The translations under genes and the position numbers were made by a program. A stretch of 64,000 bases of DNA, from assembly GCA_016712635.1 (NCBI GenBank), contig JADJQS010000006.1, positions 511,216 to 575,215 on the forward strand, in the 5' to 3' direction. Numbering within the stretch: the first letter of the stretch is position 1; every line of letters starts with the position of its first letter. Shown one piece after another: positions 3,401 to 49,540 of this stretch. Source of the stretch: Gammaproteobacteria bacterium. GTDB lineage: Bacteria > Pseudomonadota > Gammaproteobacteria > SZUA-140. The notes under the pieces were generated by a model. The model saw only the letters and a program-made list of their open reading frames with translations, was not told the origin of the DNA and did not search any database.

Positions 3401-4297
3401 ATGTCCCCTGACGCGCCAACCAGACGGCTGACCATCATCGGCGTCGGCCTGATCGGCGGATCGCTGGCGCGGGCGCTCAGGCGCGCATTCCCCGGCACCG
3501 AGATCATCGGCTCCGGGCGCCAGTTGCCCAACCTGCGGCGTGCGCTGGAGCTCGGCGTCATCGACCGCCACGAGACCGATCCGGCGCGCGCGGTAGAAGG
3601 AGCGGATCTGGTCGTGATTGCCGTACCGGTCGGGGCGATCGAATCCGTATTCGCCGCGATCGACGGGCATCTCGCGGCGGACGCGGTCATCACCGATGTC
3701 GGCAGTACGAAAGGCAATGTGGTCAGCTCTGCGCGGCGACGGCTCGGCGATCACCTGGCCGACTTCGTTCCCGGGCACCCGATCGCGGGCACGGAGCGCA
3801 GCGGCGTCGAGGCCTCGTTCGCCGAGCTGTTTCACGGCTGCCGGGTGATCCTGACGCCGCTCTCCGAGACGCGCCGCGCGGCGGTCGAACGCGTGCGCGC
3901 CGTATGGGAATGCGCCGGTGCGCGCGTGACCGAGATGGACGTGCGGCATCACGACGAGGTCCTGGCCGCCACCAGCCATCTGCCGCACCTGCTGGCCTAT
4001 ACGCTGGTCGACACCCTGGCGCGCATGGACGACAGCGAGGAGATCTTCGATTATGCCGCCGGCGGCTTCCGCGACTTCACGCGGATCGCCTCGTCGGACC
4101 CGGTGCTGTGGCGCGACATCTGCCTGGCCAATCGTGAGGCGATGCTCGGCATACTCCAGCGCTTCAGCGCAGACCTTGCCGGCATAGCCGAGGCCGTGCG
4201 CCGCGCCGACGGCGATCAACTGATGAAGGTGTTCGCGCACGCGAAGGAAGTGCGGGACCGGTTTTCCAAGAAAGGAACAGTGAGGAGTGAGGAGTGA
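3401..4297 (+). CDS. tyrA: Prephenate / cyclohexadienyl dehydrogenase.
   Basis: IIGVGLIGGSLARAL Rossmann motif and PDH domain. The stop lies within the repeat (..VRSEE*). Confidence 0.85.
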   Translation: MSPDAPTRRLTIIGVGLIGGSLARALRRAFPGTEIIGSGRQLPNLRRALELGVIDRHETDPARAVEGADLVVIAVPVGAIESVFAAIDGHLAADAVITDVGSTKGNVVSSARRRLGDHLADFVPGHPIAGTERSGVEASFAELFHGCRVILTPLSETRRAAVERVRAVWECAGARVTEMDVRHHDEVLAATSHLPHLLAYTLVDTLARMDDSEEIFDYAAGGFRDFTRIASSDPVLWRDICLANREAMLGILQRFSADLAGIAEAVRRADGDQLMKVFAHAKEVRDRFSKKGTVRSEE

Positions 4298-4378
4298 AGT
4301 GTGAGGCGCATAATATGGTGAGTGATATTGAGCATATTTCCTGTGTCGCCTCACTCCTCACGCCTAACGCCTCACCAA
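4280..4378. repeat. Heptamer-arm element copy B between tyrA and aroA.
   Basis: agtgaggagtgaggagtgaagtgtgaggcg ... gcctcactcctcacgcctaacgcctcacc. Supplies the tyrA stop codon. Confidence 0.8.
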
Positions 4379-4385
4379 TGCTGCG

Positions 4386-5762
4386 ATGACCACGAAAGAA
4401 CACATCTTCGATATCAGCCCCGGCGGCCGTCTAACCGGCGACATCCGCGTCCCCGGCGACAAATCCATCTCGCACCGCTCCATCATGTTCGGTTCGCTGG
4501 CGGAGGGCGTGACCGAAGTGGAAGGATTCCTCGAGGGCGAGGACAGCCTGGCGACCCTGGCGGCGTTTCGCCGCATGGGGGTCGTCATCGACGGGCCCGA
4601 ACGGGGCAGGGTCACCATTCACGGCGTCGGCCTGCGCGGCCTGCGGGCGCCCGATGGCCCGCTCGATCTAGGCAACTCCGGCACATCGATGCGTCTCATG
4701 TCTGGCCTGCTCATCGCGCAAGCTTTCGACACGGAACTGACCGGCGACGCCTCGCTGTCACGCCGGCCGATGCGCCGTGTGACGCAGCCGCTGGCATCGA
4801 TGGGGGCGCGCATCGAGACCGGGGATTCGGGTACGCCACCGCTGCGGATCCGTGGCGGATCCAGGCTGCACGGAGTGCGTTATGACATGCCGGTGGCGAG
4901 CGCCCAGGTCAAGTCAGCGCTGCTGCTTGCCGGACTCTATGCCGAAGGGGAGACCTGCGTGACCGAGCCCGCGCCGACGCGCGACCATACCGAACGCATG
5001 CTCACCGCCTTCGGCTATCTGGTCACGCGCCACCACAACACGGTCTGTGTGAAAGGGGGAGGTAGACTCAATCCGACCCGCATCGAGATCCCGGCGGACA
5101 TATCCTCGGCGGCATTCTTTATGGTCGGCGCCGCGATCGCGCCGGATTCTGACGTGACGCTGACAGGCGTCGGCATCAACCCGACACGCATCGGGGTCAT
5201 CAATATCCTGCAGCAGATGGGCGCGCGGATCGAGTTGATCGACAAACGCATGTACGGCGGCGAACCGGTGGCCGACCTGCGCGTGCGCACGAGCGCCCTC
5301 AAGGGGATCGAGATCCCGCTTGAACAGGTCCCGCTGGCGATCGACGAATTTCCCGCCCTCTTCATCGCCGCGGCCTGCGCCGAAGGGCGGACGGTCCTGG
5401 CCGGCGCGGAGGAACTGCGCGTCAAGGAGAGCGACCGCATCCAGGTCATGGCTGACGGGCTGCAGCTGCTGGGCATTGATGCGGAACCGACACCGGACGG
5501 GATCATTATTCACGGAAAGGGCGGAGCCGATGCCAGGGGGACGGATGTAAAATCTGTCCCCGAGGATGAAGCGGTGTTTTCCGGCGGCGAGATCCAGAGC
5601 CACGGCGACCACCGCATCGCCATGGCCTTCGCCATAGCCGCACTGCGCGCCTCGAGTCCGATCCGCGTCCGTGACTGCAAGAATGTCGATACCTCGTTCC
5701 CGGAGGTTGTGGAGTTGGCAAGGGGGGCAGAGCTGGGGGTACGTATGAGGGGTGAGGCGTGA
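4386..5762 (+). CDS. aroA: 3-phosphoshikimate 1-carboxyvinyltransferase (EPSP synthase). At 458 aa it is longer than typical; it contains a hairpin-derived internal insertion and a repeat-derived C-terminal tail.
   Basis: Conserved LGNSGTSMRL, RPMRR and HGDHRIAMAFA motifs. An internal GGGGACGGAT..ATCTGTCCCC hairpin sits at about 5535-5561 in frame. The tail ..VRMRGEA* is encoded by the repeat. Confidence 0.9.
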   Translation: MTTKEHIFDISPGGRLTGDIRVPGDKSISHRSIMFGSLAEGVTEVEGFLEGEDSLATLAAFRRMGVVIDGPERGRVTIHGVGLRGLRAPDGPLDLGNSGTSMRLMSGLLIAQAFDTELTGDASLSRRPMRRVTQPLASMGARIETGDSGTPPLRIRGGSRLHGVRYDMPVASAQVKSALLLAGLYAEGETCVTEPAPTRDHTERMLTAFGYLVTRHHNTVCVKGGGRLNPTRIEIPADISSAAFFMVGAAIAPDSDVTLTGVGINPTRIGVINILQQMGARIELIDKRMYGGEPVADLRVRTSALKGIEIPLEQVPLAIDEFPALFIAAACAEGRTVLAGAEELRVKESDRIQVMADGLQLLGIDAEPTPDGIIIHGKGGADARGTDVKSVPEDEAVFSGGEIQSHGDHRIAMAFAIAALRASSPIRVRDCKNVDTSFPEVVELARGAELGVRMRGEA

Positions 5763-5855
5763 GGAGTGAGGAGAAAGAGTACGTCGAGTGGATTCAGCCT
5801 TCTGCCAATCAGATTCCGGTTTTTCGCCTCACGCCTACCCCTCACGCTTCACCTG
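5745..5855. repeat. Heptamer-arm element copy C between aroA and cmk.
   Basis: atgaggggtgaggcgtgaggagtgagg ... cgcctcacgcctacccctcacgcttcacc. Confidence 0.8.
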
Positions 5856-11641: not shown

Positions 11642-12706
11642 ATGAACAAGGACCATAATTTACCCATCGAAAGTTCCGCACCGGGCGCCTACCCGCATTA
11701 TCCCGCCGTGCCGCCGGATGACGAGATCAGTCTGGTGGATCTCTGGCTCGTGCTGGCGCGGCACAGGCGCCTGATCGCAGCCATCGTGGCACTGACTGTT
11801 GTGCTGGGCATCGCCATCGCCGCATTGAAAACCGATAGCTATTCCTATACCACGACGATCCAGATCGCCCGCGTCGGTGATGGATTGCTGGAGGAACCGG
11901 TAACACTGCTCGCCAAACTGAATGAAAGCTACATACCGTTTATTTCACAGCAGCGCCTGCAGGCCGAACCGGATACCAGGCGTATCAAAGTCAGTGCCGA
12001 GATCCCCAAGGACAGTACTCTCATCCTGATGCGCAGTGAAGGTGACCTGGCCGATCAGGAGATCCACTTCAATGTGCATAAGCAGATCCTCGACAGATTG
12101 GCCCAGGACCATAATCCGGAGGTCGATGTCATCAAGCTCAGCATGGAGAACGACCTGAACCGCATCCGCAACCAGCTCGACAAGCTCAAGGACGAGGCCT
12201 TGTCGCTGCAGGCGCAGGGAAAGCGTCTGGACGAGCAGGAGATCCTGCTGAGGGAACAGCTCAAGGGTATGCAGAAGCTGATCGATATTTCCGAATCCAA
12301 TCGCAGCAAGGCGCTGACCGAGGTGGAGGGCGAGGCCAAGGCCATGACCCTGATGCTGATCGACACCGAGACCAGGAAGTATATGGATCGCGAGGGCGAG
12401 ATCAAGGAACGCCTGCTGGTCGGAATGTCTGCCGACCGGGACAGACTGAAGAACGATGTAGCCGACAACCTGCGCAGGCAGACGGAACTGCAGGAGAAGC
12501 TGCGGGAGGCTCAGGCGAAGATCGTGAATATACGATATACGCGTCCCATCGTGCCCACTCTGCGTTCACTTGAACCACACGAGGTTGGGAGACTGTTTGT
12601 TGTCCTTATCGCCGGCATCCTTGGACTGTTGCTGGGCATATTAACCGCCTTGCTGGCCGAGTTCCGGCTCAAAATCAAAGAGAGGATGCATGAGCAGGTT
12701 CGCTAG
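11642..12706 (+). CDS. wzz: Polysaccharide co-polymerase (Wzz-type O-antigen chain-length determinant).
   Basis: N- and C-terminal TM helices flanking a long coiled-coil periplasmic domain. Start taken at MNKDHNL; the ORF track begins at 11606. Confidence 0.65.
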   Translation: MNKDHNLPIESSAPGAYPHYPAVPPDDEISLVDLWLVLARHRRLIAAIVALTVVLGIAIAALKTDSYSYTTTIQIARVGDGLLEEPVTLLAKLNESYIPFISQQRLQAEPDTRRIKVSAEIPKDSTLILMRSEGDLADQEIHFNVHKQILDRLAQDHNPEVDVIKLSMENDLNRIRNQLDKLKDEALSLQAQGKRLDEQEILLREQLKGMQKLIDISESNRSKALTEVEGEAKAMTLMLIDTETRKYMDREGEIKERLLVGMSADRDRLKNDVADNLRRQTELQEKLREAQAKIVNIRYTRPIVPTLRSLEPHEVGRLFVVLIAGILGLLLGILTALLAEFRLKIKERMHEQVR

Positions 12707-12858
12707 GCGCGTGATATGGCGGAGGAACAACGTGGGGGGGCACTTGATACCCTGGAAAAGCCTAATTAGAGCCTGCCCTCGCCTTGCCAATGATTGCGTC
12801 ACATACAGTTCACACAGCCACGAACGCCGATAATAGCTTCCTCTGGTAAGATAAGCTC

Positions 12859-14388
12859 ATGATCATCCAACCGGTCATCCTGTCAGGCGGCTCGGGTACC
12901 CGTCTGTGGCCGCTGTCGCGGGAACATTATCCCAAGCAGTTACTGGCCCCTGTCAGCGACCTGACCCTGCTGCAGTCCACTGTCAACCGCCTGGATCACC
13001 TTGAGGCGATGCAGGATGTCCGGATCGCCGCCCCGCTGGTCATCTGCAACGAGGAACACCGTTTTCTGGTGGCCGAGCAATTACGCCAACTGGGTAAGCC
13101 GCCTGGCCAGATCCTGCTCGAGCCGGTCGGACGGAATACCGCGCCGGCGGCCACCCTGGCGGCCCTGCATGCCGGGGACAGGGGCGCCGTGCTGTTGATC
13201 ATGCCGGCCGACCACCTGATACGCGACGAGGCGGCCTTTAGCCGGGCTGTAATCATTGGTGCGCGGCTGGCTTCGGCTGGCCAGGTCGTCACCTTCGGTA
13301 TCCTGCCGACACGCGCCGAGACCGGTTATGGCTACATCCACAAGGGCGCTGCCCTTGCGGGTGAGGCGTCAGGCGCGAGGCGTGAAGCGGTAGGGAAGGG
13401 AGCACTTTCACCTGACACCTCTCGCCTGACGCCTCACCTCATAGAACAGTTCGTTGAAAAGCCGGATGCCGCCACGGCGCAATCCTATCTCGACTCCGGA
13501 GAATATCTCTGGAACAGCGGCATCTTCATGGTGCGCGCCGCGGTGTGGCTGGAAGCGATCATGCGCCACCGCCCGGACATTTATTCCGCTGCGGAGCAGG
13601 CGTACACGAGCGGCAAGCAGGACGGAGACTTCTACCGCGTGGACAAGAAACTGTTCGCCACGTGCCCCAGCGACTCCATCGACTACGCCGTCATGGAAAA
13701 GCTCACCGCCTCCATCTCCTCACCCCTCACGCCTGACGCCTCACCGATAACCGCGGCGGTGATCCCGCTGGATGCCGGCTGGTCGGACGTCGGCGCCTGG
13801 TCCAGCCTGTGGGAGGTCTCGCCGCAGGACGCCGACGGCAATATCCTGCGTGGCGACGTCATCGCTGAAGACACTCGCAATTCCCTCCTGTACGCCGAGC
13901 ACCGCCTGCTCGCCGGCGTAGGCCTTGATAACATTATTGCGATCGAGACCGCCGACGCCATCCTGGTCGTGCACAAGGACAAGGCGCAGAACGTGAAGGA
14001 TATCGTCGCCCACCTGAAGAAGCAGGGGCGCAGCGAGCACCAGATCCACCGCCGCGTACATCGTCCATGGGGCAGCTACGAAGGCATTGACAAGGGGGAA
14101 CGTTTCCAGGTCAAGCGTATCACGGTCAAGCCGGGTGCTTCGCTCTCCCTGCAGATGCACCACCATCGCGCCGAGCACTGGATTGTCGTGAAGGGGACCG
14201 CCCGCGTCGTGCGCGGGGACGATGAATTCCTGCTCAGTGAAAACGAGTCCACCTATATCCCGATCGGGGTCACCCACCGCCTGGAGAATCCGGGAACGCT
14301 CCCGCTCGAACTGATCGAGGTTCAGTCGGGATCATATCTTGGGGAAGACGATATCGTCAGGTTCGAGGATCACTACGGAAGGAAGTGA
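12859..14388 (+). CDS. manC: Bifunctional mannose-1-phosphate guanylyltransferase / mannose-6-phosphate isomerase (ManC/CpsB type). Carries two in-frame repeat-derived insertions.
   Basis: N-terminal nucleotidyltransferase (ILSGGSGTRLWPLS) and C-terminal cupin (QMHHHRAEHWIVV). 509 aa versus about 480 typical. Confidence 0.9.
   Translation: MIIQPVILSGGSGTRLWPLSREHYPKQLLAPVSDLTLLQSTVNRLDHLEAMQDVRIAAPLVICNEEHRFLVAEQLRQLGKPPGQILLEPVGRNTAPAATLAALHAGDRGAVLLIMPADHLIRDEAAFSRAVIIGARLASAGQVVTFGILPTRAETGYGYIHKGAALAGEASGARREAVGKGALSPDTSRLTPHLIEQFVEKPDAATAQSYLDSGEYLWNSGIFMVRAAVWLEAIMRHRPDIYSAAEQAYTSGKQDGDFYRVDKKLFATCPSDSIDYAVMEKLTASISSPLTPDASPITAAVIPLDAGWSDVGAWSSLWEVSPQDADGNILRGDVIAEDTRNSLLYAEHRLLAGVGLDNIIAIETADAILVVHKDKAQNVKDIVAHLKKQGRSEHQIHRRVHRPWGSYEGIDKGERFQVKRITVKPGASLSLQMHHHRAEHWIVVKGTARVVRGDDEFLLSENESTYIPIGVTHRLENPGTLPLELIEVQSGSYLGEDDIVRFEDHYGRK
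13360..13440 (+). repeat. Complete heptamer-arm element inserted in frame inside manC (about 81 nt, encodes GEASGARREAVGKGALSPDTSRLTPHL).
   Basis: ggtgaggcgtcaggcgcgaggcgtgaagcg..cctgacacctctcgcctgacgcctcacctc. TGA triplets of the left arm are mutated or out of frame. Confidence 0.75.
13727..13746 (+). repeat. Right-arm (CCTCAC) fragment in frame inside manC (encodes SSPLTPDASP).
   Basis: tcctcacccctcacgcctgacgcctcacc. The corresponding segment is absent from typical ManC between the MEK and VIPLDAGWSD blocks. Confidence 0.65.
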
Positions 14389-14566
14389 GGCGTGAGGGGG
14401 CAGGTGTGAGGCGAAAATACTAACTATGGGAGGTCTGATTAATTCGTCATGCCCGCGCAGGCGGGCATCCAGGTCCTTGAATTACTGGTTTCCCGCTTTC
14501 GCGGGAATGACAACCAGGTAATTATTCAGGTTTCCCTAACGCCTAACACCTAACGCCTCACCAACA
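14385..14566. repeat. Composite element between manC and gmd. Heptamer-arm element (arms at 14385-14418 and 14535-14566) with a CCCGC double-hairpin element nested in its loop (14446-14511).
   Basis: agtgaggcgtgagggggcaggtgtgaggcg ... gtcatgcccgcgcaggcgggcat..ttcccgctttcgcgggaatgac ... cctaacgcctaacacctaacgcctcacc. Confidence 0.8.
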
Positions 14567-14578
14567 AAGAGGTTAGCC

Positions 14579-15664
14579 ATGTCAAAAACAGCCTTAATCA
14601 CCGGCATCACCGGCCAGGACGGGGCCTATCTGGCGGAATTTCTGCTGAAGAAGGGCTATGTCGTGCACGGGATCAAGCGGCGCACTTCGCTGTTCAACAC
14701 CGACCGCATCGACCATCTGTATCAGGATCCGCACGTCGACAACCGCCGGTTCATCCTGCACTACGGCGACATGACGGATTCGAGCAGCCTGATCCGGATC
14801 GTGCAGGAGGTGCAACCGGACGAGATCTACAACCTGGCTGCGCAAAGCCACGTCGCGGTGTCATTCGAGGAGCCGGAGTACACGGCGGATTCCGACGCCC
14901 TGGGGGCTCTGCGTCTGCTCGAGGCGATCCGGATCCTCGGCCTGGAGAAGAAGACCCGCTTCTACCAGGCCTCGACCTCCGAATTGTACGGACTGGTGCA
15001 GGAAGTGCCCCAGAGGGAGACGACGCCATTTTATCCGCGCTCGCCCTATGCCGTGGCAAAGCTCTACGCCTACTGGATCACGGTCAATTACCGCGAGGCC
15101 TATGGCATCTATGCCTGCAACGGAATCCTGTTCAATCATGAAAGCCCGATCCGGGGCGAGACCTTCGTCACGCGCAAGATCACGCGCGCGCTGGCGCGCA
15201 TCAAGCTTGGCCTGCTCGACTGCCTGTATCTCGGCAACCTGGACGCGCGCCGCGACTGGGGGCACGCACGCGATTACGTCGAGGCGCAGTGGCTGATGTT
15301 GCAACAGAAATCAGCGGAAGATTTCGTCATCGCAAGCGGAATTCAGTACAGTGTGCGCGATTTCGTCGACGCCGCCGCGAGTGAACTCGGGATGCGCATC
15401 TCATGGAAGGGACAGGGTGCCGAGGAGAAGGGCTATGATGCAGCCGGCCGCTGCATCGTGGCAGTCGATCCGCGCTATTTCCGTCCGACCGAAGTGGAAA
15501 CCCTGCTCGGTGATCCGAGCAAGGCCAGGGATAAGCTGGGCTGGACGCCGCGCACCAGCTTCAAGGAACTCGTCGCTGAAATGGTGCGCGAAGACCTCAA
15601 GGTAGCCGAACGGGATGAACTGTGCAGGAGAGAAGGGTTCAGGACGTTTGATTACCATGAATAA
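14579..15664 (+). CDS. gmd: GDP-mannose 4,6-dehydratase.
   Basis: [29 protein letters not shown]. 361 aa. Confidence 0.95.
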
Positions 15665-15667
15665 AAT

Positions 15668-15703
15668 ATGTGAAGTGTGAGGAGTGAGGTGTTAGGCGTA
15701 TGA
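15668..15703. repeat. Left arm of the heptamer element that carries the four-helix-bundle gene.
   Basis: tgtgaagtgtgaggagtgaggtgttaggcg immediately after the gmd stop. Confidence 0.7.
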
Positions 15704-15733
15704 GCTTACAGAATTTCCACGGAGGGAAATCCA

Positions 15734-16096
15734 ATGAGCAGAATACATCACGGACTCTTGGCGTGGCAGCACGCTATGAAGTTTGTAAAGGATATTTATG
15801 AGGTCACATCGGCATTCCCAAAATGTGAAATGTACGGGCTGACAAGTCAAATGAGGCGTGCCGCGGTTAGCGTGCCATCCAACATCGCGGAAGGTGCCGG
15901 AAGGGCCAGTTTCAGGGAGTTTGGGCAATTTCTCACGATAGCTCGTGGCTCTCTGTGCGAGCTCGAGACCCAGGTTGTCCTGGCTAAAGAGTTAGGCTAT
16001 ATCGCAGAGAACGATGATTTACTATCCAAAATGGAAAAACTGTTCGCTTTACTGGGTGGACTGATCAATTCTATCGGGAAACGATATCAGCAATGA
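15734..16096 (+). CDS. Four-helix-bundle protein (23S rRNA intervening-sequence protein / Avd-like family). Low-GC cargo inside the repeat element.
   Basis: 120 aa. [46 protein letters not shown] are hallmark motifs. Local GC is visibly lower (about 47%) than the neighbours. Confidence 0.8.
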
Positions 16097-17088
16097 CGCT
16101 TCACGCCTCACACCTAACACCTGACCTCTCTATCTACGTTGCCGGCCATCGCGGCCTGGTCGGTTCCGCCCTGATGCGTCGATTTCAAGCAGCAGGATAC
16201 AGCAATCTGGTTACACGGACGCATCGTGAGCTGGATCTCACCGACCAGGCGGCGGTGCGCGAATTTTTCCGGACGGAGAAACCGCGGCGGGTGCTCCTGG
16301 CCGCGGCGAAGGTCGGCGGGATACTGGCCAACGACACCTATCCGGCGGAATTCATCCGCGAGAACCTTGCCATCCAGACCAACGTAATTCACGAGGCCTG
16401 GCGCTCCGGCGTCGAGCGGCTCCTGTTTCTGGGATCTTCCTGCATCTATCCGCGCGAGTGCCCGCAGCCGATGAAGGAAGAGTATCTGCTTACCGGCCCG
16501 CTGGAGAAGACCAACCGCGCCTACGCGGTGGCGAAGATCGCCGGCATCGAGATGTGCCGCTCCTACAATCAGCAGTACGGAACCCGTTACCTTGCCGTGA
16601 TGCCGACCAACCTGTACGGTCCGGGTGACAACTTCGACCTGCAGAACTCCCATGTGCTGCCCGCACTGATACGCAAGATGCACGAGGCAAAGCTCGCCGG
16701 ATCACCCGCGGTCACGGTATGGGGAACAGGGACGCCGCGCCGGGAATTTCTGCACAGCGACGACCTCGCCGACGCCTGCCTGTTCCTGCTGAGCCTGCCG
16801 GAAGAGCAATACGCCTCACTCCTTACGCCTCACGCCTCACCGCCGTTGATCAACGTCGGATGCGGTCAGGACGTCACCATCCGCGAGCTGGCCGAGACCG
16901 CGCAGCGTGTCGTCGGATACCCGGGCCGCCTGGAGTTCGACACCAGCAAGCCTGACGGGACGCCGAGAAAGCTGCTGGACGTATCGCGCCTGAGCGCGCT
17001 TGGCTGGACGCCGCGCATCGGCCTGGCCGACGGAATCGCGCAGGTATATCGCTGGTACCTGGATCAACCCGCCTCGCAGGCGCATTGA
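16093..17088 (+). CDS. fcl: GDP-L-fucose synthase (GDP-4-keto-6-deoxymannose 3,5-epimerase/4-reductase). The true start is probably near 16129. Contains one in-frame right-arm insertion at 16813-16841.
   Basis: [14 protein letters not shown], the YPAEFI motif and the C-terminal domain. The first ~12 codons of the ORF-track model ([12 protein letters not shown]) are repeat-encoded. The internal [10 protein letters not shown] insert is absent from E. coli Fcl. Confidence 0.85.
16098..16128. repeat. Right arm (CCTCAC repeats) closing the element around the four-helix-bundle gene. Overlaps the annotated 5' end of fcl.
   Basis: cgcttcacgcctcacacctaacacctgacctc. Confidence 0.7.
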
Positions 17089-17139
17089 TCCGGAGGCTGG
17101 AATCTGTTTCAAAATTGATGATAGGCGGAAACAGCAGGC

Positions 17140-17222
17140 GTCGTCCCCGCGAAAGCGGGGATCCAGTGGCTTTAAGCCGATGAAAAGCAGAAACACTGGA
17201 TTCCCGCTTTCGCGGGAATGAC
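17140..17222. repeat. CCCGC double-hairpin inverted element, copy 2, between fcl and gmhB.
   Basis: gtcgtccccgcgaaagcggggatccag ... tggattcccgctttcgcgggaatgac. The same termini and architecture as 14446-14511. Confidence 0.75.
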
Positions 17223-17276
17223 GCATTTATCTTTCATTGCAAACATGCATTTCCAATTTTGAGATAGGTTCCAGTT

Positions 17277-17822
17277 ATGGCAGGCAGGGCGCTGATACTC
17301 GATCGGGACGGCGTGGTCAATATCGACAGGGACTATGTCCACAAGATCGAAGATTTCGAGTTCGTCGACGGCCTGTTCGAGCTGTGCCGCATGGCGGCCG
17401 GTCAGGGCTACCGCATCATCATCATCACCAACCAGTCCGGAATTGGACGCGGCTATTACACCGAGGATGATTTTCACCTCCTCACCGGCTGGATGAAGGC
17501 CAGATTCGAGGAGGAGGGTATTACGGTGGCGCAGGTCTATTACTGCCCGTATCATCCCGTGCACGGCATCGGGAAGTACAAGCAGGACTCCTACGACCGC
17601 AAACCCAACCCCGGCATGATCATCAAGGCGGCGCAGGACTTCGATTTGGACCTTTCAAACTGTATACTCGTCGGAGACCGCGAATCCGATATGAAGGCCG
17701 CACAGACCGCGGGTGTCGGCCATAAGGTCCTGTACCGTCCGGAAGGCGGCATTGATGCCCCGACGCGGGCGGACTACGTCGTCAACGAGCTGAACACCGT
17801 GCTCGAATTGGTCACGGATTGA
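17277..17822 (+). CDS. gmhB: D-glycero-beta-D-manno-heptose-1,7-bisphosphate 7-phosphatase (HAD family).
   Basis: [13 protein letters not shown] motif [23 protein letters not shown]. Confidence 0.85.
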
Positions 17823-17945
17823 GCATGCGAGGGTGCATGTTGTGCCGGGCAGACCAGGCACAACGGGCGTCATGATCCCGGGTGAGCGTTACGGCGTTCA
17901 CCACAGGCTACGGCATATTGTAGAAAGGCGTTGATTCACTGAACC

Positions 17946-18518
17946 ATGAGTGACCGTATCGTAAAAGCGCTGGAAGACCACGAGAACGTCCTTGCGGCCG
18001 TGCGGGATAACCTCGTCGCCGATATCGAGCAGGTGGCGCAATGCCTGATCGACTGCCTCGGCCGGGGCCACACCATCTTCTGGTGCGGTAACGGCGGAAG
18101 CGCGGCGGACGCACAACACATCGCCGCGGAACTTGTCGGCCGCTTCGAGCGCGAACGGAAAGCGCTCGCCTCCATCGCGCTGTCCACTGATACCTCAATC
18201 CTGACCAGCGTGGGAAACGACTATGGCTTCGACAGCATCTTCAAGCGCCAGGTCGAAGCACTGGTTCGTCGGGGTGATGTGCTCGTGGGCCTGTCCACCT
18301 CGGGCAACAGCCCGAACGTGGTGCGCGCCATCGAACAGGCGAACGGCCAGGGCGCCACCACGATCGGCGTGCTGGGCAGAGACGGCGGCCGGATAATAAA
18401 ACTTTGCCGCCTGTCGATAGTTGTGCCGGCGGAAAACACCGCGCGCATCCAGGAGATGCACGGGCTAATCGGGCACATACTGTGCGATCTGATTGAAAAG
18501 AGCAGGACTGAGGACTGA
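17946..18518 (+). CDS. gmhA: Phosphoheptose isomerase (SIS domain).
   Basis: IFWCGNGGSAADAQHIAAE, LSTSGNSPNV. The stop lies in the repeat (..RTED*). Confidence 0.85.
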   Translation: MSDRIVKALEDHENVLAAVRDNLVADIEQVAQCLIDCLGRGHTIFWCGNGGSAADAQHIAAELVGRFERERKALASIALSTDTSILTSVGNDYGFDSIFKRQVEALVRRGDVLVGLSTSGNSPNVVRAIEQANGQGATTIGVLGRDGGRIIKLCRLSIVVPAENTARIQEMHGLIGHILCDLIEKSRTED

Positions 18519-18630
18519 GTGCTCAGGACTGAGTAAAAGACAAAATCTACCCGAGCCAGATAAGCTAAGTTTAAATAGAAATAATGTTTATGGGTTTTCA
18601 CTCAGTCCTAAGACCTCAGTCCTCAATCCT
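18506..18630. repeat. Variant heptamer-arm element with ACTGAGG / CCTCAGT arms between gmhA and cysC.
   Basis: ggactgaggactgagtgctcaggactgag ... cactcagtcctaagacctcagtcctcaatcc. Confidence 0.75.
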
Positions 18631-18648
18631 ATTATTTAGGAGTTCATC

Positions 18649-19260
18649 ATGAGCGGTAATAAGAGTACCAACGTCGTCTGGCACCAGGCCACCATCGACC
18701 GTCAGAAGCGCGAAGCCATGAACGGGCACAAGAGCGCGATCCTGTGGTTCACAGGGTTGTCCGGTTCGGGAAAATCCACGCTGGCGCATGCGGTGGAAGA
18801 AAAGCTCCACGGACTGAAGTGCCGCACCTTCGTGCTCGACGGCGACAACATCCGCCACGGACTGTGCGGTGACCTTGGTTTCTCCGATGAGGACCGCGTG
18901 GAGAACATCCGCCGCATCGGCGAAGTCTCCAAGCTGTTCATAGAGGCCGGCGTGATCGCCATGACCGCGTTCATCTCGCCGTTCCGTGCCGACCGCGAGC
19001 GCGTGCGCAGCCTGGTCATGCATGGCGACTTCATCGAGATCTACTGCAAGGCCTCGCTCGAAGTGTGCGAGCAGCGTGACGTGAAGGGTCTGTACAAGAA
19101 GGCGAGGGCAGGGGAGATCAAGGCCTTTACCGGAATCTCCTCGCCGTATGAGGCGCCCGACAAGCCCGAGATCATCGTCGAGACCGGGGCCGATTCGCTG
19201 GACAAGTGCGCCGACCAGGTGCTCGCCTTCCTGCGCGAGCGCGGCATTCTGAAGGGCTGA
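18649..19260 (+). CDS. cysC: Adenylyl-sulfate (APS) kinase.
   Basis: [14 protein letters not shown]-loop, [10 protein letters not shown], 203 aa. Stand-alone; no cysN/cysD in the window. Confidence 0.9.
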
Positions 19261-19269
19261 CACAGGATT

Positions 19270-19348
19270 GGGGACAGATTTTTATCTGTCCCCCGATATC
19301 GCAATGATGCCAGTACGCCTCACACCTAACGCCTCACACCTCACGCTC
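19270..19348. repeat. GGGGACAGAT hairpin (19270-19294) followed by a right-arm-only CCTCAC repeat block (19315-19348).
   Basis: ggggacagatttttatctgtcccc ... gcctcacacctaacgcctcacacctcacgctcg. Confidence 0.75.
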
Positions 19349-19353
19349 GAGCC

Positions 19354-21120
19354 ATGAGCCTTGAAGCCTGGTTTACCGTTGCCGTCATCGGCCTCTGCCT
19401 CGGGCTGCTGATACACGGGCGCACGGCGCCGGACATCGTCATGATGGCCGGCCTGACCCTTCTGCTGGTGTCCGGCATACTGACGCCAACGGAAGCTCTT
19501 TCCGGTTTGTCGAATGAGGGCATGGTCACGGTGGGCATCATGTTCGTCATCGTGACCGGCCTGCGCGATACCGGCGCCATCGCCTGGATCGTGCAGCACC
19601 TGCTCGGTGTGCCGCGCTCGACCGCCCACGCCCAGATGCGCCTGATGACCCCGGTCGCCGCCATGAGCGCCTTCCTCAACAACACTCCGGTGGTCGCGAT
19701 GATGATCCCGGCGGTGCAGGACTGGGCGCGCCGCCACCGGATCTCCGTCTCCAAGCTGATGATCCCGCTGAGCTATGCCACCATCGCCGGCGGCACCTGT
19801 ACCCTGATCGGCACCAGCACGAATCTCGTTGTGAACGGCATGCTGATCAAGGAGACCGGCCACGGACTCAAGATGTTCGAGCTCGCCTGGGTGGGTATCC
19901 CGCTGGTGGTGGTGGTCTTCCTCGGCATCGTCCTGCTTAGCCGCTGGCTGCTGCCAGAGCGCAAGCCGGCCATCAGCCAGTTCGAGGAATCGCGCGGCTA
20001 TACCGTGGAGATGATGGTGGACTCCAGCGGGCCGCTGGTCGGCAAGACAGTGGAGCAGGCCGGCCTGCGCCACCTGCCGGGTCTGTATCTGATCGAGATC
20101 GACCGCGGCGAGCAGGTGCTGCCGGCCGTTTCGCCGCTCGAGCGGCTGCAGGCGAACGACCGGCTGATCTTCGCCGGGGCGGTGGAATCGGTCATCGACC
20201 TGCAGAAGATCCACGGCCTCTCCCCGGCCACCGACCAGATCTTCAAGCTGGGCATGCCACGGCCGGAACGCTGCCTGATCGAGGCGGTGATCTCCAACAG
20301 CGCCCCGCTGGTGGGCAAGAGCATCCGCGAGGGGCGCTTCCGCACCCTCTACAACGCGGCGGTCATCGCCGTCTCGCGCAGCGGCGAGCAGATCAAGGGC
20401 AAGATCGGCGACATCGTGCTGCGTCCGGGCGACACCCTGCTGCTGGAAGGGCACCCGTCCTTTGTTGAGCAGCAGCGCAATTCGCGTGACTTCTATCTGG
20501 TGAGCCGTCTGGCGGGCTCGACCCCGCTCAATCATGACAAGGCGCCGATCGCACTCGCGATCATGACCGCCATGGTGGCCGCCGCCGCCTTCGGCTGGCT
20601 CAGCATGCTGCAGGCGGCGCTGCTGGCCGCCGGCGCGATGTTGATTACCCGCTGTACGCGCGGCAGCAATGCGCGCGCAGCGGTGGACTGGCAGATCCTG
20701 ATCGTGATCGCCGCCTCGCTCGGCATCGGCAAGGCGCTGGAGACCACGGGTGCGGCGCAGGCAATGGCTGACGGTTTCCTGTCCTTCACCGGGGCAGGCC
20801 CGCTGATGGCGCTCTTCGTGGTCTACGTCATGACTGTGCTGTTCACCGAGATCGTGACCAACAATACCGCTGCTGCACTGATGTTTCCCATCGCGCTTGC
20901 GCTCAGCAAATCACTCGATGTGAGCTACATGCCCTTCATCATCACCATCACGGTGGCGGCTTCGATGAGCTTCGCCACTCCGATCGGGTACCAGACCAAC
21001 CTGATGGTGCTGGGTCCGGGCGGTTATCGCTTCACCGACTACATGAAACTTGGTATCCCGCTGACCGTCATGGTCGGGATACTGATTATGCTGATTGTCC
21101 CGCGGGTGTGGGCGTTCTGA
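19354..21120 (+). CDS. SLC13/DASS-family anion permease with two central TrkA-C (RCK_C) domains. Candidate sulfate or dicarboxylate transporter.
   Basis: 588 aa. N- and C-terminal multi-TM halves around two repeated roughly 70-aa TrkA-C-like segments (GKTVEQAGLRHLPGLYLIEIDRGEQ.. and GKSIREGRFRTLYNAAVIAVSRSGEQ..). Confidence 0.7.
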   Translation: MSLEAWFTVAVIGLCLGLLIHGRTAPDIVMMAGLTLLLVSGILTPTEALSGLSNEGMVTVGIMFVIVTGLRDTGAIAWIVQHLLGVPRSTAHAQMRLMTPVAAMSAFLNNTPVVAMMIPAVQDWARRHRISVSKLMIPLSYATIAGGTCTLIGTSTNLVVNGMLIKETGHGLKMFELAWVGIPLVVVVFLGIVLLSRWLLPERKPAISQFEESRGYTVEMMVDSSGPLVGKTVEQAGLRHLPGLYLIEIDRGEQVLPAVSPLERLQANDRLIFAGAVESVIDLQKIHGLSPATDQIFKLGMPRPERCLIEAVISNSAPLVGKSIREGRFRTLYNAAVIAVSRSGEQIKGKIGDIVLRPGDTLLLEGHPSFVEQQRNSRDFYLVSRLAGSTPLNHDKAPIALAIMTAMVAAAAFGWLSMLQAALLAAGAMLITRCTRGSNARAAVDWQILIVIAASLGIGKALETTGAAQAMADGFLSFTGAGPLMALFVVYVMTVLFTEIVTNNTAAALMFPIALALSKSLDVSYMPFIITITVAASMSFATPIGYQTNLMVLGPGGYRFTDYMKLGIPLTVMVGILIMLIVPRVWAF

Positions 21121-43867: not shown

Positions 43868-44536
43868 ATGGTGCTTCCGTATAAGCTTCTCGTGTTCGAC
43901 TGGGATGGGACCTTGATGGATTCGGAGGCGCGCATCGTCAGTTGCCTGTCGATGACCTTATCCGATCTCGCCTTGCCCGCGCTCGGGCGCGATGAACTGC
44001 TCAACGTGATCGGGCTCGGACTGCCGGAGGCGGTTGCCACGCTGCTGCCGGAGGCCGATGCGGGACTGATCCGCCGCTTCATCGATCGTTACCGTTACCA
44101 TTTCCTGTCCGACCATCACGCCGCCGCGGTTTTGTTCCCGGGTGCGAAGGAGACCCTCACCGCGCTCGATCGCCGCGGCTACCTGCTGGCGGTTGCAACC
44201 GGCAAGGGCAGACGGGGGCTGGACCAGTCCCTGGAGGACACCGGCTGCGGCGGCCTGTTCTCGCTCTCGCGTTGCGCGGATGAAACCGCTTCCAAGCCGA
44301 ATCCGCGTATGCTGATCGAGATCATGGATGTGCTCGGCATCGCCCCGGACGAGACCCTGATGATCGGCGATACCGAATATGACATGCAGATGGCGCACAA
44401 TGCGGGCGCGCGCGCGCTGGCGGTGAGCTACGGCGTCCATGCGCGTGAACGCCTGCTCGCCTGCGAACCGCTCGGGTGCCTGGACGTGATCACCGATATA
44501 CTTCCCTGGCTCGAAGGCGTGAGGCGTGAGGCGTGA
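43868..44536 (+). CDS. HAD-superfamily hydrolase (phosphoglycolate-phosphatase-like).
   Basis: LLVFDWDGTLMDS motif I, VATGKGRRG, MIGDTEYDM. The C-terminus (..VRREA*) and stop are contributed by the heptamer array. Confidence 0.7.
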   Translation: MVLPYKLLVFDWDGTLMDSEARIVSCLSMTLSDLALPALGRDELLNVIGLGLPEAVATLLPEADAGLIRRFIDRYRYHFLSDHHAAAVLFPGAKETLTALDRRGYLLAVATGKGRRGLDQSLEDTGCGGLFSLSRCADETASKPNPRMLIEIMDVLGIAPDETLMIGDTEYDMQMAHNAGARALAVSYGVHARERLLACEPLGCLDVITDILPWLEGVRREA

Positions 44537-44722
44537 GGCGTGAGGCGTGAGGCGTGAGGCGTGAGGCGTGAGGCGTGAGGCGTGAGGCGTGAGGCGTGAG
44601 GCGTGAGGCGTGAGGCGACAAGAGTTTGCTCGCCGCATTTTCCTTGTCCAGCACTTTTTTAAATTAGTATTTTTCTTCTTTTACCCCTAACTCCTCATCC
44701 CTCACGCCTAACCGAATACCCT
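44515..44722. repeat. Heptamer element copy K. A pure (GTGAGGC) array of about 14-15 units, a roughly 70-nt AT-rich loop and a CCTCAC right arm, upstream of sppA.
   Basis: gaggcgtgaggcgtgagg... x14 then gacaagagtttgctcgccgcattttccttgtccagcacttttt..ttttacccctaactcctcatccctcacgcctaacc. Confidence 0.85.
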
Positions 44723-44776: not shown

Positions 44777-45784
44777 ATGTCTGACGAGAACAAACAGCAG
44801 GATCCATGGCTGGGTGAGGCGCAGGCGCCGCGCGCAGGTAACGGCAAGCAGGGCGCCGTGGAAGAGACGTGGGCACGCAGCGTGCTGGAAACGCTGGTAC
44901 AGGCTACCCTCAAGGAGCAGCGCAGCGCCCGCCGCTGGGGTGTCTTTTTCAAGCTGATGTTCCTCGGATATCTGTTTCTGATCCTGTACACCTACTGGCC
45001 GGGGAAGCTGGTCGACGAGAGCCTGTCGGGCCGGCATACCGCCCTGATCGACATCAACGGCGTAATCGCCGAGGACCGCGACGCCAGTGCGGACTACATC
45101 GTCGACAGCCTGCGTGAAGCCTTCGACAACAAGCACGCCGCCGCCATCCTGCTGCGTATCAACAGCCCCGGCGGCAGCCCGGTGCAGTCGGGCTATGTCA
45201 ACGACGAGATCGCGCGCCTGCGCGCGCAGCATCCCGACAAGAAGGTGTACGCCGTGATCACCGACATCTGCGCCTCCGGCGGCTATTACATCGCGGCGGG
45301 CGCTGACGAGATCTACGCGGACAAGGCAAGCATCGTGGGCTCCATCGGCGTGCTGATGGACGGCTTCGGTTTCGTGCAGACGCTCGACAAGCTCGGCATC
45401 GAGCGCCGCCTGATCACGGCGGGCGAGAGCAAGGGCTTCCTCGATCCGTTCTCGCCGATGAAACCCGATGACGAACACCATATCCGCACGATGCTGGCGA
45501 ACATACACCAGCAGTTCATCGATACCGTGAAGAAGGGGCGCGGGGACCGCCTCAAGGACGATCCCAGCCTGTTCACCGGGCTGGTGTGGACCGGCGAGGA
45601 AAGCCTCAAGCTCGGCCTGGTCGACGGCCTGGGGAGCCCCAGCTACGTCGCGCGCGAAATCATCGGCGCGGAAGACATCATCGACTACACCTATCAGCCG
45701 CCGTACTTCCAGCGCTTCGCCGAACGCATCGGCGCAGCGGCGGCACAGGGAGTGGCGGGGATGCTGAAGGTGGAACTGAGGTGA
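44777..45784 (+). CDS. sppA: Signal peptide peptidase SppA (36K type, ClpP/crotonase fold).
   Basis: ICASGGYYIAAGADEIYADKASIVGSIGV catalytic Ser region. TM near the N-terminus. The stop TGA lies in the first repeat unit. Confidence 0.85.
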   Translation: MSDENKQQDPWLGEAQAPRAGNGKQGAVEETWARSVLETLVQATLKEQRSARRWGVFFKLMFLGYLFLILYTYWPGKLVDESLSGRHTALIDINGVIAEDRDASADYIVDSLREAFDNKHAAAILLRINSPGGSPVQSGYVNDEIARLRAQHPDKKVYAVITDICASGGYYIAAGADEIYADKASIVGSIGVLMDGFGFVQTLDKLGIERRLITAGESKGFLDPFSPMKPDDEHHIRTMLANIHQQFIDTVKKGRGDRLKDDPSLFTGLVWTGEESLKLGLVDGLGSPSYVAREIIGAEDIIDYTYQPPYFQRFAERIGAAAAQGVAGMLKVELR

Positions 45785-45968
45785 GGCGTGAGGCGTGAGG
45801 CGTGAGGCGTGAGGCGTGAGGCGTGAGGCGTGAGGCGTGAGGCGTGAGGCGTGAGGCGTGAGGCGACAAGAGTTTGCTCGCCGCATTTTCCTTGTCCAGC
45901 ACTTTTTGAATTAGTATTTTTGTTCTTTTACCCCTGACACCTCACCCCTCACGCCTCACGACTCACTC
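45781..45968. repeat. Heptamer element copy L. A (GTGAGGC) array of about 12 units plus the same loop and right arm as copy K, between the convergent 3' ends of sppA and maf.
   Basis: Near-identical loop to copy K (a few substitutions). The array is 2-3 units shorter. The right arm runs into the maf stop. Confidence 0.85.
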
Positions 45969-48503: not shown

Positions 48504-49468
48504 TGTACGCGCGCATCACGGGCACGGGCGGCTATCTGCCCGCCAGGGTGCTGTCCAACGCCGAACTCGAGCGTATGGTCGACACCACCGACCAGTGGAT
48601 CGTCGAGCGCACCGGCATCCGCACGCGTCATATCGCCGCCCATGGCGAGACCACCTGCGACTTGGCCGAGGCCGCGGCGCGCCGTGCGATCGAGGCAGCA
48701 GGCCTCGTGCCCGCCGACATCGACCTCATCATCGTCGCGACCACCACGCCGGACAAGGTGTTTCCCAGCACGGCCTGCCTGCTCCAGCAGCGGCTCGGCA
48801 TCCACGGTCCCGCCGCCTTCGACATCCAGGCCGTGTGCACCGGTTTCGTCTACGCACTCAGCGTGGCCGACAAGTTCATCCGCACCGGCAGCGCGCGCTG
48901 CGCACTGGTCGTCGGCGCTGACACCCTTTCGCGCATCATCGACTGGCAGGACCGGTCCACCTGCGTCCTGTTCGGCGACGGTGCCGGCGCGGTGGTCCTG
49001 GAGGCGGCCGCGGAGCCCGGCATCCTGTCGACGCACCTGCACGCCGATGGCCAGTACCAGGAGATGCTGATGGTTCCCGAAGGCGTCTCGCAGGGTTATG
49101 AAAGCGTGCAGGAAGGCAGCGCATTCATCAAGATGCAGGGCGGCGAGGTATTCAAATTCGCGGTGAACTCCCTGGAACAGCTCGTCGACGAGACGCTGGT
49201 GGCCAACGGAATGCAACGGGACGACATCGACTGGCTGGTCCCGCACCAGGCCAATATCCGCATCATCACCGCCACCGCGCGCAAGCTGAAGATGTCCATG
49301 GAGCGCGTCGTCGTGACCGTGGATACCCATGGCAACACCTCGGCGGCGTCGATACCCCTCGCGCTCGACGTCGCCGTTCGCGACGGCCGCATCAAGCGCG
49401 GCGAGACCCTGCTGTTCGAGGCTGTCGGCGGCGGCTTCACCTGGGGTTCTGCGCTGGTTAAATATTAG
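48503..49468 (+). CDS. fabH: 3-oxoacyl-ACP synthase III.
   Basis: The internal start [13 protein letters not shown] overlaps the plsX stop. The upstream 115 codons of the ORF-track model are spurious. Cys-His-Asn active-site context. Confidence 0.9.
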
Positions 49469-49540
49469 TGAGGCGTGAGGCGAGAGGCGTGAGGGGTAAA
49501 TTCTTTTTTCCGCCTCACACCTCACTCCTGACGCCTCACC
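49467..49540. repeat. Compact heptamer-arm element copy M between fabH and fabD.
   Basis: tagtgaggcgtgaggcgagaggcgtgagg ggtaaattcttttttcc gcctcacacctcactcctgacgcctcacc. Confidence 0.8.

Follow-up and report, generated by a model that had tools for sequence, protein, structure and literature searches.

A dispersed repeat inside a gene raises the question of whether it was added to the protein or took the place of codons that were already there, and a repeat at the 5' end of a gene raises the question of where translation begins. Both questions arise for fcl, the gene for GDP-L-fucose synthase, in a stretch of 64,000 nt from Gammaproteobacteria bacterium (SZUA-140; GCA_016712635.1, JADJQS010000006.1:511,216-575,215, forward strand), called the window in the following. 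According to the original prediction a 30-nt repeat arm had been inserted in frame into fcl, adding about 10 residues, and translation of the gene began near 16129. We consider it probable, for both parts jointly, that the repeat replaced native codons of a variable surface loop, and that fcl is initiated at its annotated start codon, supplied by a repeat element located between gmd and fcl.

The gene itself (16093-17088, plus strand, 331 aa, with a sole canonical start) is a bona fide GDP-L-fucose synthase. Its product is matched by NF047922 with 484.3 bits over residues 13-326 and by PDB 1bsv with E = 4e-115 over residues 14-325, and a database protein is 100% identical to it over the same 331 aa.

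The heptamer array inside fcl and the length of its loop

At 16812-16841 on the plus strand we read cgcctcactccttacgcctcacgcctcacc (30 nt), which codes for A241-P250. In the frame of fcl this decapeptide is flanked by LSLPEEQY on one side and by P-L on the other. Sequence and flanks are those originally given for 16813-16841, a range that starts one base late. The array consists of the units CGCCTCA CTCCTTA CGCCTCA CGCCTCA followed by CC; the four units (16812-16839) show 2 mismatches to (CGCCTCA)4 and hold an exact 15-mer of the genomic consensus CGCCTCACGCCTCAC. Counting matches to this 15-mer with up to 3 mismatches, we found 81 in the window compared with 3.6 +/- 1.9 in shuffles, and one exact match falls inside the fcl segment. 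Arrays of period 7 occur 18 times in the window; the periods 5, 6, 8, 9, 10 and 11 account for 0-4 arrays each. Most arrays form inverted pairs: some four TGAGGNG units make up the left arm, and beyond a spacer of 14-400 nt some four CNCCTNA units make up the right arm. In left-arm orientation TGA appears in every frame across three units, and in right-arm orientation all frames are stop-free. The solo arrays of fcl and manC are both in the stop-free CNCCTNA orientation. With its four units, the 15-mer and the 81 matches against 3.6, the segment in fcl derives from the dispersed right-arm repeat of this genome, as had been proposed.

A different picture emerged for the proposed in-frame insertion and for the claim that the segment is missing from E. 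coli Fcl. The E. coli GDP-fucose synthetase (PDB 1bsv) aligns across the whole segment with a single 2-residue gap (ELAHEVWLENTQPMLS--HINVG). We took the residues from LFL to INVG as the loop and determined its length in 121 sequences, namely the 120 best database homologues and E. coli. The loop comprises 19 aa in 49 sequences and 20 aa in 44, among them the window, so that these two lengths cover 93/121; 18 aa are found in 6 sequences including E. coli, and 21 aa or more in 22. The window loop is thus one residue longer than the 19-aa class and two residues longer than that of E. coli. A second comparison with 80 loci from species-representative genomes agrees on the loop length, FDEILAKYQPPL and FSSLITHHSSPPL being examples. 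Neither in 1bsv nor in the 121 sequences nor in the 80 loci did we find what an in-frame insertion would leave behind, that is, shorter orthologues from which the segment is missing. If the 30 nt were removed, the loop would fall 9 residues under the mode, and the array therefore took the place of native codons. Judged from these alignments the length of the Fcl loop is ancestral. Replacement, and not an insertion of 10 residues, is thus the likelier account of the array.

In the AlphaFold 2 (AF2) model of Fcl, whose predicted local distance difference test (pLDDT) averages 89.2, the array-coded residues A241-P250 are placed where helix 237-242 ends and in the loop 243-251, ahead of the strand 252-255, and pLDDT dips to a mean of 79 over residues 241-250. 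The LSLPEEQY codons 5' of the array are native and conserved in array-free orthologues. A left-arm remnant next to the loop array was considered and rejected, since these upstream codons are native and the array is solo. Unit 2 reads CTCCTTA and gives S-L-L-T at a position where a consensus unit would code for S-R-L-T; the same is true of the peptide in L001, L008, L018 and L021 (homologous loci from other genomes carry L numbers here). The native Leu-Leu and Pro-Pro-Leu anchors are preserved in the array-coded loop. The loop array is probably without a function of its own in the Fcl enzyme.

The 5' end of fcl and the element between gmd and fcl

Codons 2-11 of fcl are made up by a repeat arm, the right one of the gmd-fcl element (16097-16124, plus strand; CGCTTCA CGCCTCA CACCTAA CACCTGA). 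The overprinting of the gene's 5' end by the arm, which had been noticed before, was therefore confirmed. The start near 16129 that had been proposed along with it was rejected, as no canonical start codon is present there: position 16129 is TCT, and the sole near-cognate codon nearby is ATC at 16132. From the in-frame stop at 16015 to the NADP-binding GxxGxxG motif a single ATG, GTG or TTG codon occurs in frame, namely ATG 16093, and the next canonical in-frame start, ATG 16174 (Met28), is located downstream of this motif. Residues 1-13 have no secondary structure and low pLDDT in the AF2 model.

ATG 16093 overlaps the TGA stop codon (16094-16096) of the preceding open reading frame (ORF), which encodes a four-helix-bundle protein, so that ATGA is formed at 16093-16096. 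This junction is conserved in 5 genomes (the window, L082, L001, L081 and L163). The gene order manC-gmd-four-helix-bundle-fcl-gmhB-gmhA-cysC-permease is kept together with the 4-nt overlap in L082, L001, L081 and a second P0015 contig. With the ATGA overlap and no Shine-Dalgarno-like motif before fcl, the two ORFs have the layout of a translationally coupled pair, and between gmd and fcl no promoter- or terminator-like sites were found above shuffle expectation. We regard the annotated ATG 16093 as in good likelihood the right start. In L163 the gene caller took an ATG within the arm as the fcl start. The gmd gene of L082 is split; an element insertion as the cause was rejected, because the interruption is a run of N (scaffold gap).

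The arm belongs to an element of 454 nt (15671-16124) whose inverted 28-nt arms enclose a Shine-Dalgarno site and the ORF. The left arm (15671-15698, plus strand) consists of four TGAGGNG units, is the reverse complement of the right arm and lies 6 nt past the stop codon TAA (15662-15664) of gmd (14579-15664). Within the element loop a Shine-Dalgarno-like GGAGGG is located at 15721-15726 (plus strand), 7 nt before the ATG of the four-helix-bundle ORF, and GGAGG is found at the equivalent place in L001 and L002. The ORF, the cargo of the element (15734-16096, plus strand, 120 aa), belongs to the S23p / 23S rRNA intervening-sequence protein family. It is matched by TIGR02436 with 125.8 bits (cutoff 24) and by PDB 2gsc (XCC0516) with E = 8e-31, and PF05635 is found in the orthologues that relatives have at this position. 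Left and right arms pair in both the minimum free energy (MFE) and the centroid fold of 15655-16140 (-156.4 kcal/mol, z = -2.2).

An intervening sequence (IVS) of 23S rRNA is recognized by a terminal stem potential of about 28 bp, an S23p/four-helix-bundle ORF in the loop and a location within a 23S rRNA gene. The first two features are present in the element and the third is not: an Rfam search of 12500-19800 gave no rRNA match, and the element is located between gmd and fcl, outside helix 9, 25 or 45 of 23S rRNA. From its sequence, the element has the anatomy of an S23p-carrying 23S rRNA IVS that is sited in an mRNA operon. The 23S rRNA IVS of Coxiella burnetii is 428-444 nt long, has a 28-bp terminal stem with an S23p ORF in the loop and three heptamers in tandem upstream of this ORF, and RNase III cleaves the IVS midway along the stem (PMC4990558). 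With 454 nt, 28-nt arms, a Shine-Dalgarno site and a TIGR02436 ORF, the window element resembles the ORF-carrying IVSs of Coxiella burnetii and Leptospira (about 430-450 nt, stem of about 28 bp). In contrast to these it is located between protein genes of an operon, both of its arms are pure heptamer arrays, and its 3' arm is read as the N-terminal codons of the downstream gene; an excision by RNase III would be suggested by analogy only.

Regarding the 5' end of fcl, we propose that the element captured the initiation of the gene, its arm being translated as an unstructured N-terminal leader. fcl would then most likely be translated by termination-reinitiation coupled to the four-helix-bundle ORF, and the arms may serve as RNase III substrate as in rRNA intervening sequences. 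If, as we think probable, Fcl is not a lengthened enzyme and its start is annotated correctly, its activity should be ordinary; there is probably no consequence for the enzyme, and the part of interest is the surrounding element system. In this system a repeat element of the 23S-IVS type appears in ordinary operons, where it contributes the stop codon of one gene along with the start codon of the gene that follows. Should the capture of the start codon be real, it would offer a simple route by which a selfish cassette resists deletion.

The loop in other genomes and the origin of the array

Close orthologues of fcl were read at the DNA level in L082, L001, L163 and L164. We distinguish heptamers of family 1 (CNCCTNA/TGAGGNG type), family 2 (CTTAGTC in loop arrays) and a third family (GTGATGG / CCATCAC). 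All four close orthologues carry the family-1 loop array, with protein identities of 94% for L082 and 84% for L001, and the ten array codons of the window and L001 differ at four synonymous sites only. The array was present before orthologues with at least 82% identity diverged, and it now evolves as an ordinary loop. In L081 the loop has 30 aa and contains four family-2 units (CTTAGTC CTAAGTC CTTAGTC CTTAGTC); in L002 it has 23 aa and one family-2 unit, a difference of 7 aa, or three units. L008 (Acidiferrobacterales, 69% identity) reads CGCCTCA CTCCTCA CGCCTCA CTCCTCA in the same register as the window, and family-1-like arrays in this register are also found in the more distant Fcl of L021, L018, L076, L046 and L032.

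We placed these sequences on a neighbor-joining (NJ) tree with the loop masked, a crude tree with long terminal branches. The nearest neighbours of the distant array-bearing Fcl (L008, L021, L018, L076, L046, L032) are array-free. The array loops fall in at least 4 places, on a tree whose resolution is too poor to settle between single and repeated origin. The lag-7 score amounts to 15-19 of 21 for array loops and to 4-12 for all other loops but one. The original prediction would have been abandoned if Fcl of unrelated lineages carried the same kind of segment as an ancestral linker. Segments resembling SLLTPH do occur in other lineages, but a linker free of repeats did not emerge from the comparison, as several of these orthologues carry heptamers in their DNA. 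Since they too are heptameric, the loop of ancestral length seems to have received its array recurrently or to have had it refreshed. The alignments suggest that the fcl loop was rewritten in several lineages by at least two repeat families, and that heptamer arrays repeatedly colonise tolerant protein loops, the fcl loop staying at its ancestral length.

fcl would accordingly hold two pieces of the dispersed heptamer repeat, both in the only orientation that is stop-free. For the internal piece we assume that a solo right arm overwrote the middle of the variable loop between helix 237-242 and the strand LINV. A short templated conversion from another genomic array is the most likely origin. 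It could have been anchored on the native S-L-L-T codons (TCN CTN CTN AC), which resemble 1.5 units, and selection would have retained Leu-Leu, by way of the CTCCTTA variant that avoids Arg-Leu, as well as Pro-Pro-Leu.

The same outcome could have been reached in two events instead of one conversion, by insertion of an array and a compensating deletion of neighbouring native codons. Longer array loops of 23, 26 and 30 aa do exist in relatives, arrays step by three units between L081 and L002, and selection on length could have trimmed an enlarged loop. Two events would however have to land within one residue of the ancestral length and in the same LL/PPL register in the window clade, L008, L021 and L018, and we regard this course as rather unlikely. 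A fold of 15655-16870 raises another explanation: here the left arm 15671-15698 pairs with 16812-16839 and not with 16097-16124, in the MFE as well as the centroid structure, so that the internal arm might be an RNA partner of the left arm in competition with the 5' right arm, either as a long-range riboregulatory switch by which the start region of fcl would be freed or occluded, or as an RNase III site in fcl. The pairing is predicted on thermodynamic grounds alone, across 1.1 kb of mRNA that is translated and without shuffle control, and we treat it as a curiosity. L164, moreover, combines upstream arms of family 2 with a loop array of family 1, which are unable to pair, and L001 tolerates synonymous changes; a role as RNA partner is quite improbable.

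More doubtful still is an ancestral linker that happens to resemble the repeat, the peptide being under selection at the protein level and the periodicity of the DNA a by-product. It is true that S-L-L-T and P-P-L are common in array-free orthologues (e.g. L019, L025, L072) and that the loop length is ancestral. Against this, the DNA contains the exact consensus 15-mer and all four units lie within the variant range of the family, L008 shares a near-identical array in DNA at 69% protein identity, the lag-7 scores separate array loops from all others but one, and relatives carry another heptamer family at the same place. The insertion of a 30-nt arm with some 10 added residues and a start near 16129 is hardly credible: 30 nt is a multiple of three and matches the repeat, and true in-frame additions are known from the manC loops, from L008 fcl (+11 aa) and from L081, whose loop is 10 aa longer than that of the window, but E. 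coli aligns through with its 2-residue gap, 93/121 loops have 19 or 20 aa, no in-frame ATG, GTG or TTG is present from 16096 to Met28, and the ATGA junction is conserved and recurrent.

Replacement in the loop together with an fcl start supplied by the element remains the best explanation overall, and one that we hold to be probable. Several observations weigh against it. The score of 484.3 for Fcl is slightly below the NCBI equivalog cutoff of 500 for NF047922. Upstream of the fcl start no recognisable Shine-Dalgarno sequence was found within 5-10 nt. The four-helix-bundle ORF is frameshifted in L163 (2120-2480) and L164 (2090-2470) while fcl is intact, and coupling is thus not obligatory. 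L163 keeps the ATGA start and gains a second ATG inside the arm by a change from ACG to ATG. In L002 and L164 a different four-helix-bundle gene is present between family-2 arms and the fcl ATG follows right after the arm; it is L164 that counts here. A cut by RNase III midway along the stem would part ATG 16093 from the body of fcl, so that processing and initiation would have to be alternatives. The case for recurrence leans on the crude NJ tree, with which one old event followed by lateral transfer of fcl alleles would also be compatible. Finally, coupling, RNase III cleavage and the conversion route are steps that we infer from the sequence.

The element and its heptamers beyond fcl

To assess how general the element is we surveyed four-helix-bundle genes in 80 fetched metagenome loci (L083-L162), whose homologues are 46-62% identical. 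A period-7 array is located within 250 nt of the four-helix-bundle ORF in 55/80 loci, and on both sides in 26. The density of period-7 arrays, counted for 74 ORFs, reaches 1.86 per kb beside the four-helix-bundle ORF and 0.20 per kb in the remainder of the same loci; in the control, 560 kb of unrelated Fcl loci, it is 0.018 per kb. This amounts to a roughly 100-fold enrichment beside four-helix-bundle genes, where the periods 5, 6, 8, 9 and 11 reach only 0-0.08 arrays per kb. Counted more strictly, arrays flank the ORF on both sides in 21 loci; they are inverted in 17 of these and direct in 0, and the heptamer is element-specific. The usual distance from arm to arm in these loci is 350-570 nt.

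The junction seen at fcl recurs on three unrelated contigs, each with a four-helix-bundle stop overlapping an ATG (ATGA), a stop-free arm and an in-frame enzyme without another start. The enzyme is Gmd at L084:1153, with profile position 1 at residue 19, Fcl at L085:1863 and RmlA at L118:1842, the last with a different heptamer arm, CACCACT. At L088:1866 a similar junction leads into a MetF-like ORF that is truncated by the contig end. In L086 (1857-2160) an 87-nt unit comprising the 3' end of the four-helix-bundle gene, GTGA and the right arm is repeated four times in tandem 5' of gmhB, and these repeats result in an open frame of about 100 arm-derived codons.

Tentatively, and with some way to go to even chances, these observations may be drawn together as follows. 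Inverted heptamer arms with a four-helix-bundle (S23p/TIGR02436) gene would form widespread IVS-like cassettes which are not confined to rRNA and settle at cistron junctions. The left arm would supply or abut the upstream stop codon, and the downstream gene would be translated only via the cassette, with an arm-encoded leader. Arm-only derivatives could spread to other junctions and enter tolerant loops by templated replacement, to be domesticated afterwards, so that the loop array and the N-terminus of fcl would be two products of one system. If the capture of the start codon is real, it would imply a rule for annotation, namely that arm-encoded N-termini should not be trimmed, and it would provide a concrete genomic context for the large and function-less four-helix-bundle/S23p family. 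In the literature searched, no paper links inverted heptamer arrays to four-helix-bundle genes outside rRNA, beyond the heptamers of the Coxiella IVS, and none describes the takeover of a start codon by such an element.

Dispersed heptamers as such are known from other bacteria. In cyanobacteria the short tandemly repeated repetitive (STRR) heptamers form dispersed tandem arrays, also reported within the RNase P RNA gene in a helix that is variable, which constitutes a tolerated insertion in a functional gene; phylum and units are other than in the window. TAACTGA heptamers of marine Beggiatoaceae, cyanobacteria and Bacteroidetes occur in arrays of 2-6 immediately upstream of start codons or across upstream stops (MacGregor 2015, PMC4679880). 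In one orientation they contain stops in all three frames, and in the other they are tolerated in ORFs, mostly at protein ends (PMC4679880). The orientation logic of the window arrays is identical. The heptamer differs, however, and in the window inverted pairs bracket spacers or the four-helix-bundle ORF, whereas TAACTGA was reported in direct sets, inverted in one case only, and no link to four-helix-bundle genes was described. Geobacter metallireducens has multicopy elements of four tandem heptanucleotides within and between genes (Aklujkar 2009, PMC2700814) and paired five-unit heptamer sites on opposite strands (PMC2700814). The unit number of four and the intragenic occurrence are shared with the window. 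The units GGACCGG and MTYCTGA differ from those described here; they were interpreted as regulator-binding or RNA elements, with no analysis of protein loops and no cargo ORF.

Besides the gmd-fcl element (arm starts 15671/16097), the inverted arm pairs of the window have their left and right arms starting at 1047/1134, 4281/4347, 5746/5825, 13362/13409, 14385/14540, 44513/44684, 45782/45931 and 49469/49511. Solo right arms start at 13716, 16812 and 19316. Left arms overlap the upstream stop codon or are located within 6 nt of it. Stop codons in or just before left arms are found at 1044-1074, 4281-4308, 5746-5773, 14385-14413, 18503-18535, 44513-44617, 45782-45865 and 49466-49496; the genes that end there are those for a 2-hydroxyacid dehydrogenase, tyrA, aroA, manC, gmhA, a HAD hydrolase, an S49 peptidase and fabH. 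Because the left arms hold upstream stop codons, the last residues of several proteins are arm-encoded. Ordinary housekeeping genes flank the intercistronic elements: pheA, tyrA, aroA, cmk, fabH, fabD and those for a 2-hydroxyacid dehydrogenase, a HAD hydrolase and an S49 peptidase. Numbers are too small to assess an enrichment of in-frame arrays in GDP-fucose genes, and pheA, tyrA, aroA, cmk, fabH and fabD are likewise flanked by intercistronic elements.

In manC in-frame repeat insertions are present, as had been stated: ManC is 509 aa long and its orthologues about 470-495 aa; one loop is extended by about 17 aa and another by 4 to 10 aa. One of the two arrays is a complete small element of left arm, 19-nt spacer and right arm (13362-13436, plus strand), read in frame as GEASGARREAVGKGALSPDTSRLTPH. 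Only one unit of its left arm (13362-13389) would place TGA in frame, and this unit has TCA instead. Rfam returned hairpin-type sub-threshold matches only for 13362-13436. A solo right-arm array (13716-13743, plus strand) is located in a second variable loop and is read in frame as SSPLTPDASP. Across many lineages, arrays belonging to several heptamer families are found in these two loops of ManC. A true in-frame array insertion of 11 aa is also seen in fcl of L008 (4597-4630), where TSRLTPHASRD follows the helix matching residues 188-202 in a separate Fcl loop.

The manC-gmd junction is occupied by elements of family 1 in the window (14370-14585), of family 2 in L082 (1070-1265), L163 (805-980) and L001 (2270-2480), and of family 3 in L164 (810-925). 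The spacers of the different families are unrelated, yet Fcl is 81-94% identical among these genomes. As both family and spacer differ between relatives, whole elements turn over at one junction.

Two left arms of the window are expanded, with 15 (44513-44617) and 12 (45782-45865) perfect GTGAGGC units, and both adjoin near-identical 65-nt spacers. The elements at 44513 and 45782 look like recent copies of one element, and the expanded arms are candidate slipped-strand hypervariable sites. One of them flanks a divergent S49 peptidase / Maf gene pair. A second heptamer family of the window, AGGACTG / CAGTCCT, brackets the gmhA-cysC spacer (18503-18535, 18601-18631), with the gmhA stop inside the left arm. 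The GTGATGG / CCATCAC family is seen in L001, L002, L081 and L164.

No known RNA family was found by Rfam at gathering score, hairpin-type sub-threshold matches being the only ones. The spacer between fcl and gmhB (17121-17239) is filled by a palindromic repeat, GTCGTCCCCGCGAAAGCGGGGATCCAG ... CTGGATTCCCGCTTTCGCGGGAATGACG, which is distinct from the heptamers; Rfam yielded for it only WsnRNA46, sub-threshold with 36.7 bits compared with a gathering score of 65.3. A copy related to this palindromic repeat is nested in the manC-gmd heptamer element at 14440-14510.

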